Positions 394 through 7,037 of a stretch of DNA of 7,037 bases are shown here, piece after piece. A program made the translations under genes and the position numbers. The notes beneath the pieces were generated by a model. That model was not told the DNA's origin and ran no database searches. It saw only the letters and a program-made list of their open reading frames with translations. The DNA is taken from the IMG/VR virus record IMGVR_UViG_2645727717_000001. One strand, written 5' to 3'. Each line of letters begins with the position of its first letter. Position 1 is the stretch's first letter. The stretch is from a virus. Its lineage: Monodnaviria; Loebvirae; Hofneiviricota; Faserviricetes; Tubulavirales; Inoviridae.

Positions 394-421
394 ATTTAAC
401 ATAATATACATTATGCGCACC
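394..421 (-). other. dif: dif chromosome-dimer resolution site (XerC/XerD target), exact 28-mer
   Basis: Plus strand 394..421 is ATTTAACATAATATACATTATGCGCACC, the exact reverse complement of the canonical E. coli dif GGTGCGCATAA-TGTATA-TTATGTTAAAT. XerD arm = 394..404, central region = 405..410, XerC arm = 411..421. Confidence 0.9.
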
Positions 422-1200: not shown

Positions 1201-2466
1201 TCAAAGCGCGCGAATAATATGAGCGGTCAGCAGAACATACATAATGCGTTGCTCATTACTGTCAGCTTTACTCCTGAAAAGCCAGCCAATCACCGGAATT
1301 TTACTGATAAACGGTACAGAACGGTCAGCATTGCTGGATGATGAATCAATCAGCCCACCAAGTAAGAGCGTCTGGCCATCCTTAATCTGAACTGTTGTCT
1401 GTATCTGACGCTGGTTCGTAATAATATCAGATGCCTGGTCATCGTTGCTGATGGAATCAGCGCGGGTATCAATAGTAAGTACAAGCTGGCCGTTCCCCAT
1501 AACAACAGGCGTCACCTTCAGAGATACGCCAACATCATGACGTTCAATGGTCTGAAACGGATTATTTACCCCGGCAGATTCACCCGTAACTTTACCCGTG
1601 ATAAAGGGTACATTTTTACCAACAGAAATATAGCCTGTCTGACCAGACTGGGTAAGAATCCGGGGCGTTGAAATCACCTTAGACCGGGAGTTACTCTGCA
1701 CCGCACGCAGGGATACGGCCAGAACATTACCATCAAAAATGCCAAAAGAGCCGCCGGCAGTCGACAATGCGCTACCCAATGCTGAAGTATTAAAGCCCCC
1801 TGCTACTTTATGCCCGGATGCAGAACCGGCTGCAAACGACAAATCAACACCATCCGACAGACTGGTTTCAAACATCAGCGACTGAATCAAAACCTGATCG
1901 CGGGCAACATCCACTGAATTGATGAAATCGGAAAGGACGGGAAGCAGCTCATCAGGTGCGGAAACAATCAGGGAGTTATTGCCAGGATAATCCACAACAT
2001 TACCCCCGCCATTAGAATCCAGATAAATTTTAACCAGTTGCTGAACATCAGACGATCGAACTTTTGTCAGCTTAAAATTTCTGACAGTAAACTCCACTGG
2101 CGCTGGCTGATAAGATGGCTCAGACGGGAAAGAGTCATAAGACCGAATATCAGCATCATCAAGGTCTGACGCCATCTGTGATGGTAATTTTGACGGCAAA
2201 GAGACTACTGCAGGATTACCCGAAAGCATGACAAATCCGTTAGCATTCAGTACAGATTTGAAGAAACTATCAATATTTGTGGGATTAACATCAGCATTAA
2301 ATACCGTTACGGTTCCTTTAACATCAGGATTAACAATAACGGGCTTGCCAGTTTTTGATGAATACCACTGGACAAATGAGCGAACGGATGAATTATTCAG
2401 GTTAACAGTTTCAGCAGAAACGCAAAAAGAATAAGTGAATAAGATAGCAATGAAAAATAAACGCAT
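1201..2466 (-). CDS. IV: pIV outer-membrane secretin for phage extrusion (421 aa)
   Basis: Collinear similarity to M13 pIV from the signal peptide through the C-terminal ...YVLLTAHIIRAL (M13 ...YVLVKATIVRAL), including GTVTVF, GGSFGIFDGNVL, PFITGKVTGESAGVNNPFQTIER, QTLLLGGL. Start taken at the internal Met (MRLFFIAILF..., ATG 2464..2466) with AGGAG 9 nt upstream; the longer track ORF would overlap gI. Confidence 0.93.
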   Translation of the reverse strand: MRLFFIAILFTYSFCVSAETVNLNNSSVRSFVQWYSSKTGKPVIVNPDVKGTVTVFNADVNPTNIDSFFKSVLNANGFVMLSGNPAVVSLPSKLPSQMASDLDDADIRSYDSFPSEPSYQPAPVEFTVRNFKLTKVRSSDVQQLVKIYLDSNGGGNVVDYPGNNSLIVSAPDELLPVLSDFINSVDVARDQVLIQSLMFETSLSDGVDLSFAAGSASGHKVAGGFNTSALGSALSTAGGSFGIFDGNVLAVSLRAVQSNSRSKVISTPRILTQSGQTGYISVGKNVPFITGKVTGESAGVNNPFQTIERHDVGVSLKVTPVVMGNGQLVLTIDTRADSISNDDQASDIITNQRQIQTTVQIKDGQTLLLGGLIDSSSSNADRSVPFISKIPVIGWLFRSKADSNEQRIMYVLLTAHIIRAL

Positions 2467-2473
2467 AATAATA

Positions 2474-2848
2474 TTACTCCTGGCAGGTGATGTTTTGTAA
2501 ATAACGGCCTTTTCTGATAACAATTCGGCAGGCATCTTTAATATCAACAGAATAACCATCTTTAATTAAATCAAAATACTGGTACTTCATACCCTTAGCA
2601 TCAACAAACGTAACGGAAACATCAAAACCAAGTTGAGAGAAGGAATTAATTGATAGTCTCGGTAAATCGCTGGTACTGTCAGGAGTTACTGCCCTCACCT
2701 GTTCAGCATGAGCAGATTTAATAGCCGAAATCTCATCAGCATTCTTACCAGATTGTAGCCAGAAGCCAAGTCCAAGCCCCAATGCCAGAAATGAAAGCAT
2801 TAATATTAATCGGTTTGATTTTCGAAAGTAAATTTTCGTGAGGCGCAT
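2474..2848 (-). CDS. XI: pXI, in-frame internal start within gI (124 aa)
   Basis: Met241 of pI (MRLTKIYFRK...) aligns with the M13 pXI initiator Met241 (MKLTKIYLKK...) and is followed by a hydrophobic transmembrane stretch. ATG at 2846..2848. Confidence 0.5.
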   Translation of the reverse strand: MRLTKIYFRKSNRLILMLSFLALGLGLGFWLQSGKNADEISAIKSAHAEQVRAVTPDSTSDLPRLSINSFSQLGFDVSVTFVDAKGMKYQYFDLIKDGYSVDIKDACRIVIRKGRYLQNITCQE

Positions 2849-3568
2849 ATAATAATTAAACCCTTTGTTAACGGAAAACTGACCATGTGTAATAAATGGC
2901 GGCAAAAGCGAATAAGCACCATGCGGATAATTATCAGTAAAAGCCTGTTTTGTATTGTAGGCGGAATATAATGACTTTCCGGTATACATCCATTTATCAA
3001 CAGTTATTGAATTAACGTTGTCACCATATTTAACAATACCAAAGTGAACCTTTGGTAAAGAAAAACGAGCACCTGAAATTATATTCATGAAAGAACCAAT
3101 AAATGGGATGTTTAACTTATCTGAACGACGACAATAAACAACATGCTCCGCAAGCGCCAGCCGTGCTTGCTTGTCCATAATCGAAATATCCTGAATCAGA
3201 AAAATAATATCCCAGCCTAATTTACGGGCATGCAAAAACCAGTCAATAACTGGCTGTCTGTCTTTATCCCCCCACGAACGGGAATTAAACCAAGTCCCAC
3301 ATTCATCAAGAACCAGTAGACCATTACGTGATTCATCATAGGAAGTATTGCCTACACCAATAGCCAGCAGATCATTTAATGAAGGTTTGTCAGGGACACG
3401 AATCACGCGTGTTTTTTTCGCATAACGACCAACCATGGGCATATTATGTAGTTTAATATCTAGATTAGTGGCTACAGGACAGCCTTTAGCTAGTCTTTCC
3501 TGTATTCTGGCAACACTAACCAGTGTCTTACCTGAACCTAATTTCCCTGTTACGACATGAACCGTCAT
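2474..3568 (-). CDS. I: pI assembly ATPase (Zot-like), inner-membrane morphogenesis protein (364 aa)
   Basis: N-terminus MTVHVVTGKLGSGKTLVSV... closely matches M13 pI MAVYFVTGKLGSGKTLVSV.... Walker A GKLGSGKT at 3524..3547. Long identical runs (GLLVLDECGTWFN, QPVIDWFLHARKLGWDIIFL, DKQARLALAEHVVYCRR). RBS AAGGTGA upstream; the ATG abuts the gVI stop. Confidence 0.95.
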   Translation of the reverse strand: MTVHVVTGKLGSGKTLVSVARIQERLAKGCPVATNLDIKLHNMPMVGRYAKKTRVIRVPDKPSLNDLLAIGVGNTSYDESRNGLLVLDECGTWFNSRSWGDKDRQPVIDWFLHARKLGWDIIFLIQDISIMDKQARLALAEHVVYCRRSDKLNIPFIGSFMNIISGARFSLPKVHFGIVKYGDNVNSITVDKWMYTGKSLYSAYNTKQAFTDNYPHGAYSLLPPFITHGQFSVNKGFNYYMRLTKIYFRKSNRLILMLSFLALGLGLGFWLQSGKNADEISAIKSAHAEQVRAVTPDSTSDLPRLSINSFSQLGFDVSVTFVDAKGMKYQYFDLIKDGYSVDIKDACRIVIRKGRYLQNITCQE

Positions 3569-3910
3569 TCAAATCACCTTGTTTGCATAATCAAGGAATT
3601 TTTGTTTTAAATCGAAAACAAAAACGCTAATTCGAGTAATCATAATGACATTAACACAGGCCTGAAAATGGTCTGGTAAGACAGATGCAATTAAATGTGA
3701 AAAATCAGCAGGAAGGCCATTGTACATAACCTCAGCAAGATATTGCATTAAGAGAGTGACAGTTGTTGTAATTAATGCAACTAATGCTACAGCTATCAAT
3801 CCTGTTTTAGTCGCAAGGCGTGCGAGGAAGCTTGCCACATAGCCAATAAATAAAGGAACAAGCCCAATAAGAAAACGCAATAGTGCAGGAATACCTAATA
3901 ATAAAGGCAT
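3569..3910 (-). CDS. VI: pVI minor coat protein (113 aa)
   Basis: MPLLLGIPALLRFLIGL... vs M13 pVI MPVLLGIPLLLRFLGFL...; C-terminal FVFDLKQK vs FIFDVKQK. The ATG overlaps the gIII stop (TAATG). Confidence 0.9.
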   Translation of the reverse strand: MPLLLGIPALLRFLIGLVPLFIGYVASFLARLATKTGLIAVALVALITTTVTLLMQYLAEVMYNGLPADFSHLIASVLPDHFQACVNVIMITRISVFVFDLKQKFLDYANKVI

Positions 3911-5153
3911 TACTCACCTCCTTTACGAAGTAATGAGGTTAAAGACGTAAATACATACCAGAAGGTAAGGCAATAAAAAATCCATGAAAGCGCATCTTTG
4001 ATAGTAAGTAATTTATCGCATTCAATATCAATCTGATAAATTTCACCGGGGAAAATAACAAGTTCAGAACAACCATTACCATTAGGTAAACTAGGGAGCA
4101 TAGCACCTTTATTCAGGAATGCTTCCCATAAAGCACCATGAGAATCTTTAGCTATTCCTAATTCGGATTCAGCCAATGTTGAAGCACTGTCTAATTCGGA
4201 ATCCCCTTTCCCATAACGAGAATCACCGCCAGAAGGATCAGCAAAACGTCCGGCTCCGCGAGTAAGGTTATTTATAGCGTCACCAAGACGATTTATATTA
4301 TTTTTAGTCTGTTCATCAGCCGATTTTTTATCATCAGATGAGGTGTCTTTTTCTGTTAACTTATCATGAATCTCACTGGCCATTTTAGGTGAAGCACCTT
4401 CAATAGCTGACTGAATATCTCCTTTGGTAATACTTGAGCCATTACCACCTGAGTTACCGCCACCTGAGTTACCACCGCCTGTATCACCTCCTCCAGTATC
4501 ACCACCCCCCGTATCCCCGCCTCCAGTATCCCCACCATCGCCAGCAGGAGAAGAAGGCTTATCTGAAGGATCGGCTACGGTTCCGGTAGGCTTCCATGTC
4601 GCCGCACAAACAGTGCCATCACCCTGGCAAACAATGACGCCAGTGGCCTCATATTCACAACCGTTATAATAAATATAACGATCACCATCATAAGATAGAC
4701 ATTATTAAATACACCTTCTTCAGGAGGTTTAGCTTCACAAATTTCTTCAGGTGTAGGCTCGGAGGGTTTTTCATCAGGAATAGAACGCTGAATATCACCG
4801 ATAATATAAGCGGTTAAATTCCAGTATTTATCTTTCTGGCCCGGAGAGTCGCTGTAGGTACAAGCGTCAGAAAACACAAGACGGAATTCAGAGTTAGGCC
4901 ATACTCCCTCATAAGTTGGTTTAACCTGAGTAAAAACACCCTGAGCACTGTCTTTAGCCCCCTGACAGGCAGAAGCCTGCATAGCTGCATCAATATAATA
5001 AACAGTTTGTTTAGTGCCATCTTGGTTGGTTATTTGCTTACTTTCAGAATAGGCAGAGCTTTGAAAAGTAGATTTAGTAATGCTTTCCCATGAATCAGCA
5101 TGTGAAAAAGAAGAAATAAGAATAGCGGAAATAATTAATATTTTCCTTTTCAT
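3910..5153 (-). pseudogene. III: pIII adsorption / minor coat protein, split across two frames by an apparent 1-nt deletion near 4698
   Basis: Frame A (5153 -> stop 4575): signal peptide MKRKILIISAILISSFSHA, ~150-aa N-terminal domain, Pro/Glu-rich linker, ...[16 protein letters not shown], then nonsense. Frame B (open 4701 -> 3913): [39 protein letters not shown] (cf. M13 N1 DRYANYEGCLWNATGVVVCTGDETQCYGTWVPIG), Gly-rich linker, C-terminal domain ending ...LPSLP...IDCDKL...FWYVFTSL. Span is 1244 nt, i.e. 3n+2. Confidence 0.8.
4444..4533 (-). repeat. Six imperfect 15-bp tandem repeats encoding the pIII Gly-rich linker
   Basis: Minus strand GGGGATACTGGAGGC / GGGGATACGGGGGGT / GGTGATACTGGAGGA / GGTGATACAGGCGGT / GGTAACTCAGGTGGC / GGTAACTCAGGTGGT, encoding (GGDTG)x4 then (GGNSG)x2. 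Confidence 0.8.
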
Positions 5154-5160
5154 AATAACC

Positions 5161-5190
5161 CGCTTTAATAAAGGGGCAACGAGTGCCCCT
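5161..5190 (-). terminator. Rho-independent terminator between gVIII and gIII
   Basis: Stem AGGGGCA (5172..5178) / TGCCCCT (5184..5190) with 5-nt loop; on the transcribed minus strand it is followed by TTTATT. Same position as the central terminator of Ff phages. Confidence 0.6.
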
Positions 5191-5199
5191 GAGTGAATT

Positions 5200-5442
5200 T
5201 TAAACTGCTTTCGAAGAGAACTTTTTAAACAAACGAATGGCAAGACCCGCACCAACGACAGCGACAACAGCAGGCCATACTTTTGCAATAAGATCGTTTG
5301 CCTGAGTCAGCAGTGAATCCATTGCCTGACCTGCATAGTCAGTGCTACCCGTTGCGCCATCAGCAGCAAAACAACTTGCAGAAACAAAAAGTGCGGTTGA
5401 AGCCACAGCAATTTTAGATTTAATAACAGAAATGACTTTCAT
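5200..5442 (-). CDS. VIII: pVIII major coat protein precursor (80 aa)
   Basis: Signal peptide MKVISVIKSKIAVASTALFVSASCFA, acidic mature N-terminus ADGATG..., hydrophobic core, basic C-terminus LFKKFSSKAV (M13: LFKKFTSKAS). RBS GGAG 9 nt upstream. Confidence 0.93.
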   Translation of the reverse strand: MKVISVIKSKIAVASTALFVSASCFAADGATGSTDYAGQAMDSLLTQANDLIAKVWPAVVAVVGAGLAIRLFKKFSSKAV

Positions 5443-5471
5443 ATAAATAACTCCATTTAAGTTAGGTTTTA

Positions 5472-5567
5472 TTACATTAATCGGTCAGATAATGTTTTAA
5501 ACGAACCGACCGCATAGAAAAGGGCAAATCCTAAGGTATAAGCCCCGAAGAAATACACAATATACAT
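5472..5567 (-). CDS. IX: pIX minor coat protein (31 aa)
   Basis: Hand-translated MYIVYFFGAYTLGFALFYAVGSFKTLSDRLM; resembles M13 pIX (MSVLVYSFASFVLGW...TRLM...). ATG overlaps the gVII stop (TAATG). Below the ORF-track length cutoff. Confidence 0.7.
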   Translation of the reverse strand: MYIVYFFGAYTLGFALFYAVGSFKTLSDRLM

Positions 5568-5653
5568 TAACGAATGACACCTGCGGTAATAGCACCAAGA
5601 CCAAAAGAAATAACAATGCCGGATGCTATTAATATTTGAATAACATCATCCAT
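5567..5653 (-). CDS. VII: pVII minor coat protein (28 aa)
   Basis: Hand-translated MDDVIQILIASGIVISFGLGAITAGVIR; resembles M13 pVII C-terminal half (...QISVVLCFALGIIAGGQR). ATG is 2 nt after the gV-analog stop; AAAGG upstream. Confidence 0.65.
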   Translation of the reverse strand: MDDVIQILIASGIVISFGLGAITAGVIR

Positions 5654-5655
5654 AA

Positions 5656-5973
5656 TTAACCTTTTATTTCAGTGATCCCACCATCTGATGAAATATTATA
5701 AGTCACACCTTCTCTACCCTCCATTGACCAGACACGAACATATACAGGGATTTGAACTAATTTCCCCGTAAAACTATTGGCTTGATTCATGACTCCGGCG
5801 TTCACAAGGGACTGTGATACACGAATAATTATTTGGTCTTGCTTAGTACCGCCAAAACCATCAGGGATCTCTAAACCGATACCAATTTCATTGTAATAGC
5901 CCTGACCATTGACTTTATTACGCTGACGAGCACCAAGCATTTTACCTTTTACAAAAAGACCATAATTAGACAT
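5656..5973 (-). CDS. Putative ssDNA-binding protein, gV positional analog (105 aa); no resemblance to Ff pV
   Basis: Sits between the replication initiator and gVII exactly where gV lies in Ff. AAGGAG RBS 7 nt upstream of the ATG. Function assigned by position only. Confidence 0.5.
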   Translation of the reverse strand: MSNYGLFVKGKMLGARQRNKVNGQGYYNEIGIGLEIPDGFGGTKQDQIIIRVSQSLVNAGVMNQANSFTGKLVQIPVYVRVWSMEGREGVTYNISSDGGITEIKG

Positions 5974-5984
5974 ATCACGCTCCT

Positions 5985-7037
5985 TTAATGCCAGTTACTG
6001 GCATGTGAAATACGGTTGTAATCAAAAATAAAACCTTTCTCATAAACCCATGTAGGGATTTGGGCTGGTTTAGCTTCAAGTGTTCTTACTAATGGAACAA
6101 CATTATTTGAATCAGGGGATTCACAATAAAAATTAATATCTATCCCGAAAGACAATAATTCTTTTCGGTGCCTGTAAAATGTTGGCTTTGGAAGCATTTC
6201 TTTCATGTTTGCGCCCTGCTTCCACAGTAAATATGTTGATTGTATTTTTCTCGGCAGTTTAACTATTTTTTCATCGGTCAAAATGGCATTTTGATTCATT
6301 TCTATTCTCCCTACATATTCAGAGAATAATTTGTTTGGAGTATCGATATTCCAGTTACTGCCAAGCGTAAGGTTTAAGTCAATTAATTCTGTTGTTCTTA
6401 GCGTCAATTCAATTCGTAATTTATCTTTAGACCAGTCAAGTAAGCCAGCTTTAACAAACTCTTCTGCTATCTGGTGTCCTTTTTTACCAGAAATATGCTC
6501 ATCATATTTTGAATAAAATTTCAGGCTCCACCGCCGGGAGTTTTTCCCTAAGTAAACAGTTCCACCTTTACCACAGGCGCGACCATGGCGAGTTTTAGCC
6601 TTGAATTCTGCGGCATATAGCCATGCGCGGACATTTTCCAGCGTTGATAATGAATACATGTAGTTAATATCAATGCGTGAGATCTTAAATTGCCCTGCCA
6701 TTACCTGACGATAGGATGGTAGATCATGAGGAATATGAAGTAATGCCAATATTCTTGCGTAAGCGGTTAATACCAGCCCCTGCAAATCATCGGAGCCAAT
6801 AACAGAATGCCCCTGAAGAAATTTTGACGGATTTCCGTCAATATAAAGATGAGTTGCCCGGCCCTCCCCGTCTGATCCAACAGATCGTACTTTCATTGTG
6901 GATTCGTATGAACCGCGAACGGTCAACCGCTTTACTGTTTCCCACTCCACTGCACCGTCAGCATCAACGCTGACGACACTACCGGCCGGTAACGGTCGGT
7001 GTGTGCAAGGAAGAATTCCGGTAAACCAGTCGATCAT
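5985..7037 (-). CDS. II: Rolling-circle replication initiator, gII equivalent (350 aa), likely of the RstA / Phage_CRI type rather than Ff pII
   Basis: Large ORF upstream of the gV analog beginning MIDWFTGILP...; no collinear similarity to M13 pII beyond MID. The ATG is the last 3 nt of the window, so an upstream extension cannot be excluded. Family assignment is from memory of N-terminal motifs. Confidence 0.75.
   Translation of the reverse strand: MIDWFTGILPCTHRPLPAGSVVSVDADGAVEWETVKRLTVRGSYESTMKVRSVGSDGEGRATHLYIDGNPSKFLQGHSVIGSDDLQGLVLTAYARILALLHIPHDLPSYRQVMAGQFKISRIDINYMYSLSTLENVRAWLYAAEFKAKTRHGRACGKGGTVYLGKNSRRWSLKFYSKYDEHISGKKGHQIAEEFVKAGLLDWSKDKLRIELTLRTTELIDLNLTLGSNWNIDTPNKLFSEYVGRIEMNQNAILTDEKIVKLPRKIQSTYLLWKQGANMKEMLPKPTFYRHRKELLSFGIDINFYCESPDSNNVVPLVRTLEAKPAQIPTWVYEKGFIFDYNRISHASNWH

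Follow-up and report, generated by a model that had tools for sequence, protein, structure and literature searches.

An IKe-type domain order in the attachment protein of a dif-integrated filamentous prophage of Escherichia coli

What is the domain that precedes the TolA-binding domain in the gene III product of this prophage, and could it decide which pilus the phage uses? In the g3p of the Ff phages (fd/f1/M13), the TolA-binding domain N1 comes first and the F-pilus-binding domain N2 second, as is seen in the structures 1g3p and 2g3p, whereas in the pIII described here the N1-like domain is the second one. This contrast had been drawn correctly by a first-pass annotation of the window, by which we mean the whole 7,037-nucleotide stretch of DNA that was analysed. 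The annotation had further proposed that the extra leading domain follows an IKe/I2-2-style arrangement, and that it probably determines the choice of conjugative pilus and thus the host range. Our analysis confirmed the observation in part: the leading domain is real, but its boundaries had been drawn too wide, and a frameshift within gene III had been overlooked.

The prophage and its nearest copy

The window covers the core of a filamentous prophage that has inserted into an E. coli chromosome at dif. All of its genes lie on the minus strand in the canonical order of inoviruses: gII, annotated as belonging to the II/X family (7037..5985), gV (5973..5656), gVII and gIX between gV and gVIII, gVIII encoding the major coat protein (5442..5200), gIII encoding the attachment protein g3p/pIII (5153..3910), gVI (3910..3569), gI (3568..2474), gIV (2466..1201), and finally a 249-nt ORF for a hypothetical protein of 82 aa located between gIV and dif. 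The prophage-host junction is marked by a 28-bp sequence that matches the E. coli dif site perfectly (GGTGCGCATAATGTATATTATGTTAAAT; 394-421, minus strand), and positions 1-393 are host DNA with the remnant of an AraC-type HTH pseudogene, which the source record describes as 'frameshifted; missing N-terminus'.

The nearest copy of the window found by megablast is located on the chromosome of E. coli SCPM-O-B-12142 (NZ_CP144928.1), where the prophage is present in tandem and adjoins a ydeP/fimbrial gene cluster. Over 7038 bases the window and this record showed three differences, namely one deletion, which lies in gene III, and substitutions at positions 5270 and 477. The substitution at 5270 changes GTT in the record to GCT in the window and replaces Val by Ala in the major coat protein, and that at 477 is non-coding and lies near dif. 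The two tandem copies in NZ_CP144928.1 (1-13038 of the locus) encode an identical, intact gene III product, and are separated by three reverse-oriented accessory ORFs, one of which encodes an HTH protein, in agreement with the description of the UPphi prophages. A related prophage in NZ_CP035884.1 is flanked by hipA. Related prophages spanning at least 80% of the window were found in 51 of the 5426 complete E. coli genomes, and I2-2 was the only phage that matched the window at the nucleotide level.

The structural genes of the window resemble those of I2-2 and IKe. Prophages of Enterobacterales that integrate at dif, are related to IKe and I2-2 and are Lineavirus-like have been described as UPphi (Shapiro & Putonti 2020, PMC7307601); in this group, structural genes of the Lineavirus kind are joined to a gene II/V module resembling that of YpfPhi. 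Like the prophage in the nearest record, those of the UPphi901 type are arranged in tandem at dif, carry Lineavirus-like structural genes and encode a replication protein of the II/X family (PMC7307601). Their g3p is the most variable gene and contains a Gly-rich repeat of varying number (PMC7307601), a feature shared by the pIII of the window. The Gly-rich repeat unit is GGGDT in the window and GGGES in the UPphi901 type. The GGGES-repeat type and the window share about 84-85% nucleotide identity and 85-86% g3p identity, and two hypothetical ORFs (309 and 234 nt) follow gene IV in the GGGES-type loci, whereas the window has the single 249-nt ORF. The window thus fits the UPphi group of dif-integrating prophages as a somewhat divergent lineage.

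Two further features of the window concern its composition and the region ahead of gene III. The GC content is approximately 46-49% at positions ~1-2250 (the 3′ half of gene IV and the downstream region) versus approximately 35-40% at 2250-6500, and this step near 2250 suggests a mosaic or recombinant origin of the 3′ part of the secretin gene and the region that follows it. The interval separating gene VIII from gene III contains, at 5172-5190 (minus strand), a hairpin rich in GC (AGGGGCA-CTCGT-TGCCCCT) with TTTATT after it, and the equivalent position of IKe holds a stem-loop annotated as a potential terminator. The consensus terminator scan did not call this hairpin, because its T tail is too short.

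Domains of the gene III product

Residues are numbered here according to the intact 414-aa protein. Gene III begins with an ATG at 5153, where the RefSeq CDS WP_053902684.1 ('attachment protein') is annotated at the same place, and ends with the stop codon at 3912..3910 (minus strand). The signal peptide comprises residues 1-19 (MKRKILIISAILISSFSHA; 5097..5153, minus strand) and aligns with the annotated sig_peptide of IKe, and the crystallised IKe fragment 4eo0 begins at the equivalent of D20.

The leading domain extends over residues 20-127 (108 aa; 4773..5096, minus strand). The Pfam search assigned PF21443, 'G3P pilus binding domain', to residues 22-125 with an E-value of 8.3e-25 and 87 bits against a cutoff of 27, and residues 20-128 matched PDB entry 4eo0, titled 'pilus binding domain of the filamentous phage IKe', with an E-value of 1e-27 and 48% identity; matches of such strength lie well outside the range of chance. 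For residues 20-128, AlphaFold (AF2) produced from 44 sequences a model with a mean pLDDT of 95.4, which consists of a beta-sheet packed on one long helix. In a Foldseek search of the PDB, the model superposed on 4eo0 with an rmsd of 1.0 Å over 106 columns (E 2.3e-14, TM 0.93/0.95, 47% identity), so that structure prediction bore out the proposed kinship with the IKe domain. The Foldseek search returned no PDB match besides 4eo0 at E<=0.001.

A TolA-binding fold and an Ff/IF1 N2-like fold were both considered for the leading domain and rejected, 4eo0 being the sole significant match in the PDB. No similarity between the leading domain and the IF1 chains was detected by Foldseek in the PDB, and no match to N2 was found in the prophage pIII by sequence; by fold, the fd N2 chain 9g8e reached only an E-value of 1.8.

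The first-pass annotation had assigned the whole range 4706-5153 (149 codons) to a single Cys-containing domain of ~150 aa. A folded domain with two conserved Cys residues (C63 and C98) is indeed present, but its size is about 108 aa, and the range in fact comprises the signal peptide (19 residues), the leading domain (108), the interdomain linker (9) and, at its end, 13 residues with which the TolA-binding domain begins. The linker itself, residues 128-136 with the sequence EKPSEPTPE (9 aa; 4746..4772, minus strand), lies between the matches to 4eo0 and 4eo1 and coincides with a dip of the pLDDT to ~73 at residues 121-140. The Pro/Glu-rich linker had been read as DEKPSEPTPEE...KPPEE; its EKPSEPTPE part holds, whereas the later ICEAKPPEE belongs to the TolA-binding domain and aligns with fd N1. 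In this alignment EEICEAKPPEEGVF, which contains the first Cys of the N1 disulfide, is paired with fd N1 ESCLAKPHTENSF, and the fd counterpart of the start of the N1-like segment is ESCLAKPHTENSFTNVW.

The second domain, of the fd N1/Phage_Coat_A type, occupies residues 137-192 (56 aa; 4579..4745, minus strand). PF05357, 'Phage Coat Protein A', was assigned to residues 135-176 (E 8.4e-8), after PF21443, and residues 130-195 matched 4eo1, titled 'TolA binding domain from the filamentous phage IKe', with an E-value of 1e-25. Foldseek aligned the full-length model to 4eo1 with a TM score of 0.89 and 72% identity. The fd N1 structures 1g3p and 2g3p matched at about 1e-12 to 1e-13, and 1tol and the N1 structures of f1 and IF1 were matched as well. 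The four Cys residues of the domain (C139, C166, C176 and C183) are conserved in the homologues. The 72-75% identity to 4eo1, together with the homology to the fd N1 in 1tol, suggests that the second domain would bind TolA (domain III). The 4eo1 structure also shows that the counterpart of the N1-like segment was crystallised on its own, which agrees with the segment being an independent domain.

The remainder of the protein consists of a Pro/Ser stretch followed by a Gly-rich linker with four GGGDT repeats (residues 193-241; 4432..4578, minus strand), predicted to be disordered, and of a C-terminal domain with the hydrophobic membrane/virion anchor (residues 242-414; 3913..4431, minus strand), which is conserved in the homologues and aligns with the C-terminal part of f1 pIII (8b3o). 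Within the Gly-rich linker, at window positions ~4450-4540 (minus strand), the four GGGDT repeats are followed by GGGNS-type units, and close relatives of the protein vary by whole repeat units in this linker (405, 414 and 424 aa). The full-length model agreed with the layout: two separate folded N-terminal domains were predicted with pLDDT values of ~90 (residues 21-125) and ~85-89 (135-193), the Gly-rich segment 206-246 was disordered (pLDDT ~28), and the C-terminal domain was helical, with a helix at 379-413. In the Foldseek search, the full-length model matched 4eo0, then 4eo1, and then IF1 and fd N1.

The pIII of the prophage is colinear from end to end with the g3p of IKe, I2-2 and Erwinia PEar6, and 4eo0 and 4eo1 map onto it in the same order as in IKe. 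The order in IKe G3P is identical, i.e., signal peptide, pilus-binding domain, short linker, TolA-binding domain, Gly-rich linker and C-terminal domain; the folds are alike (TM 0.93-0.96 to 4eo0 and 0.89 to 4eo1) and the Cys pattern is shared. The identity to IKe amounts to 48% in the pilus-binding domain, 78% in the interdomain linker, 75% in the TolA-binding domain and 50% in the C-terminal domain. In contrast, the Gly linker of the prophage pIII is shorter than that of IKe (proteins of 414 and 434 aa, respectively), and the prophage protein is encoded on a dif-integrating element, whereas IKe is a non-integrating phage. The architecture is also shared by the g3p of I2-2 and the pIII of Erwinia PEar1/2/4/6 (Lineavirus), to which the leading domain is 46% and 44% identical, respectively; IKe and I2-2 share 91% identity in this domain. 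In the Ff g3p, N1 is homologous to the second domain of the prophage protein, sharing its four Cys and 46-49% identity in the structural alignment; the homology extends to the C-terminal domain, but the leading domain has no Ff counterpart. The TolA-binding domain of IF1 g3p (2X9A/2X9B) has the same fold, with TM scores of 0.77-0.87 and 29% identity.

A leading domain matched by PF21443 and 4eo0 is therefore followed by a TolA-binding-type domain matched by PF05357 and 4eo1, and this identity and order of the domains agree with the full-length model. The IKe/I2-2-style interpretation stands, since the N-terminal region does not have a TolA-binding fold and the N1-like segment is a domain of its own. 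From these matches taken together, residues 20-127 very probably constitute an IKe-type pilus-binding domain, which would act as the primary-receptor module at the virion tip. The IKe/I2-2-style reading was both right and already known: the architecture is documented by a 2012 crystal structure, by a Pfam family and by the RefSeq annotation 'attachment protein', and the present domain adds a divergent member to a characterised family and no new principle. Jakob and co-workers are said to have reported in 2012 that the two domains of IKe G3P fold independently, and to have described the pilus-binding fold as unique.

The one-base deletion in gene III

A single intact reading frame of gene III is absent from the window. 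Compared with NZ_CP144928.1 and with NZ_CP035884.1, a 90%-identical relative that served as the second reference for this site, the window lacks one T between positions 4695 and 4694 (minus strand), so that TAT TCT (Y153-S154) reads TAT CT, a -1 change of frame. The gene is thereby split into a first frame covering 5153..4695 and continuing from there as far as a stop at 4575, and a second frame covering 4692..3910. The deletion is located inside the TolA-binding domain, after residue 153. The claim that an Ff-N1-like domain follows the linker is correct by PF05357, 4eo1 and fd N1; the frame in the window differs from the one assumed, the annotation having read across the missing base. As the deletion breaks the gene, the copy of gene III as written in the window cannot yield a functional pIII. 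Elsewhere the gene is intact, both in the RefSeq CDS WP_053902684.1 (414 aa) and in all homologues examined for this site, and an identical intact protein (P0014) comes from Salmonella enterica.

The broken frame might mean that gene III of the window is a dead pseudogene and its leading domain a relic, in which case virions would need an intact tandem copy or a helper. Besides the truncation itself, frameshifted fragments of gene III (P0003, P0008 and P0010) in other public genomes and a premature stop reported for gene III of one UPphi prophage (PMC7307601) are in line with such decay; the three fragments indicate that a broken gene III recurs in prophages or assemblies. However, the nearest record is intact in both tandem copies and shows just 3 differences over 7038 positions, and the deleted version was matched exactly in none of the complete E. 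coli genomes. For these two reasons, an error of sequencing or assembly, or an edit of the sequence, is at least as likely as a true pseudogene, and we regard the pseudogene as a tentative reading, somewhat short of an even chance. It would in any case leave the identity of the leading domain unchanged. An exact-match scan of the GTDB species representatives found neither the deleted nor the intact site and was uninformative on the natural origin of the deletion.

Among the three fragments, P0008 and P0010 are frameshifted after about residue 77, and P0003, located on a contig of 5,005,213 bp, after residue 128.

Variability of the family and the probable receptor

With the full-length protein as the query, about 60 full-length homologues were collected, and nearly all of them carry PF21443 followed by PF05357. 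They originate from Salmonella, Escherichia, Yersinia, Citrobacter, Izhakiella, Providencia, Proteus, Pantoea, Pectobacterium and Arsenophonus, and from metagenomic contigs of 6-9 kb; the close relatives come from Salmonella, E. coli, Yersinia, Citrobacter and Izhakiella. In the most divergent homologues, a weak PF21443 signal or none precedes a clear PF05357. A homologue search with the leading domain only returned just 13 sequences, mostly truncated or frameshifted fragments. When 1.84 billion representatives were searched exhaustively with HMMER, using the leading domain by itself, only 14 matches at E<=1e-3 were obtained, so the family of this domain is narrow, and no new architectures were found among these 14 representatives. 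Three further proteins were noticed in passing. P0077 (508 aa), annotated as a secretin, carries PF21443 and is probably a fusion or a mis-call, and P0083 (1386 aa) and P0084 (1938 aa) matched the helix region of the pilus-binding domain weakly and in several stretches.

Among 46 aligned homologues, the mean pairwise identity was 0.36 in the leading domain, 0.67 in the TolA-binding domain and 0.67 in the C-terminal anchor region, which makes the leading domain the most variable folded part of the protein. Mosaic proteins illustrated the same partition, with identities in the leading versus the TolA-binding domain of 28% versus 86% in P0058 and 36% versus 88% in P0037. Such a pairing, in which the primary-receptor module varies and the co-receptor module is conserved, is what a specificity determinant would be expected to show, and is not proof of one.

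PMC6431161, with reference to Jakob et al. 2012, describes the p3 of IKe as binding the retracting pilus via D1 and TolA via D2; literature cited there states that IKe uses IncN pili and that IncI2 plasmids also confer sensitivity to IKe. Judging from the homology to IKe and from its being the most variable of the folded domains, the leading domain of the prophage pIII probably sets the choice of pilus and the host range. Since it is only 48% identical to the IKe domain, its specificity may differ from the N and I2 pili used by IKe.

All UPphi901 hosts in the collection of Shapiro and Putonti contained IncI plasmids, and these authors put forward the IncI pilus as a suspicion; they could not obtain new infections, candidate IncI-bearing strains included (PMC7307601). 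E. coli SCPM-O-B-12142, the strain closest to the window, carries a 59.6-kb IncI2 plasmid (NZ_CP144929.1). This plasmid encodes a VirB/Trb T4SS with a TrbC/VirB2 pilin and a type IVb PilV-shufflon pilus, and its virB10 is interrupted by an IS3 element. As a T4SS of this type was found in 298 of the 5426 complete E. coli genomes (5.5%), the co-occurrence of prophage and IncI2 plasmid in one strain is anecdotal and only suggestive.

The same data bear on an alternative in which the domain keeps the fold and position of the IKe domain but recognises a receptor that is no conjugative pilus, for instance a surface filament encoded on the chromosome or some other structure of the envelope, and the prophages spread without plasmids. 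An identity of only 44-48% to the leading domains of IKe, I2-2 and PEar, the occurrence of close relatives across Salmonella, E. coli, Yersinia, Citrobacter and Izhakiella, and the failure to infect candidate IncI-bearing strains (PMC7307601) are compatible with such a switch. Against it stand the conjugative pili bound by the sole characterised member of the family (title of 4eo0; PMC6431161), the IncI plasmids in all UPphi901 hosts of the above collection (PMC7307601) and the IncI2 plasmid in the strain closest to the window. We consider it unlikely that the leading domain of this UPphi-related lineage has moved to a non-conjugative-pilus receptor. If it had, the switch would explain how, with no fixed plasmid partner, these prophages spread over Salmonella, E. 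coli, Yersinia and Citrobacter, and the IKe fold would be a general tip adhesin that can be re-targeted.

Returning to the preferred reading of a pilus-binding domain, the course of infection can be outlined on the IKe/Ff paradigm. The leading domain would attach to a retractile, most probably conjugative, pilus, and retraction of the pilus would carry the virion tip to the envelope. There, the fd-N1 homologue on its 9-residue linker would bind the C-terminal domain of TolA, and the C-terminal domain of pIII, which is held on the flexible Gly-rich linker, would anchor pIII in the virion and drive entry. In such a scheme, it would probably be the leading domain that sets the host range in a prophage family widely distributed among clinical Enterobacterales. 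Once known, the bound pilus would tell which plasmid-bearing strains are within reach, and phages could be targeted to those plasmids.

The homologues also bear on a last explanation of the split gene, a programmed ribosomal frameshift that would yield a short secreted pilus-binding protein beside the full-length pIII; although the upstream frame runs 40 codons past the shift and includes a hydrophobic stretch, this explanation was rejected and is in practice excluded, because the site GTC TAT CTT ATG offers no slippery heptamer and because the ~60 full-length homologues and IKe, I2-2 and PEar all have the gene in a single frame with the sequence conserved across the site. The out-of-frame tail of the window copy (4575-4694, minus strand) encodes 40 aa and opens with a 13-residue hydrophobic run, which is why the truncated product would comprise the signal peptide, the pilus-binding domain and a possible membrane segment; this combination is probably accidental.
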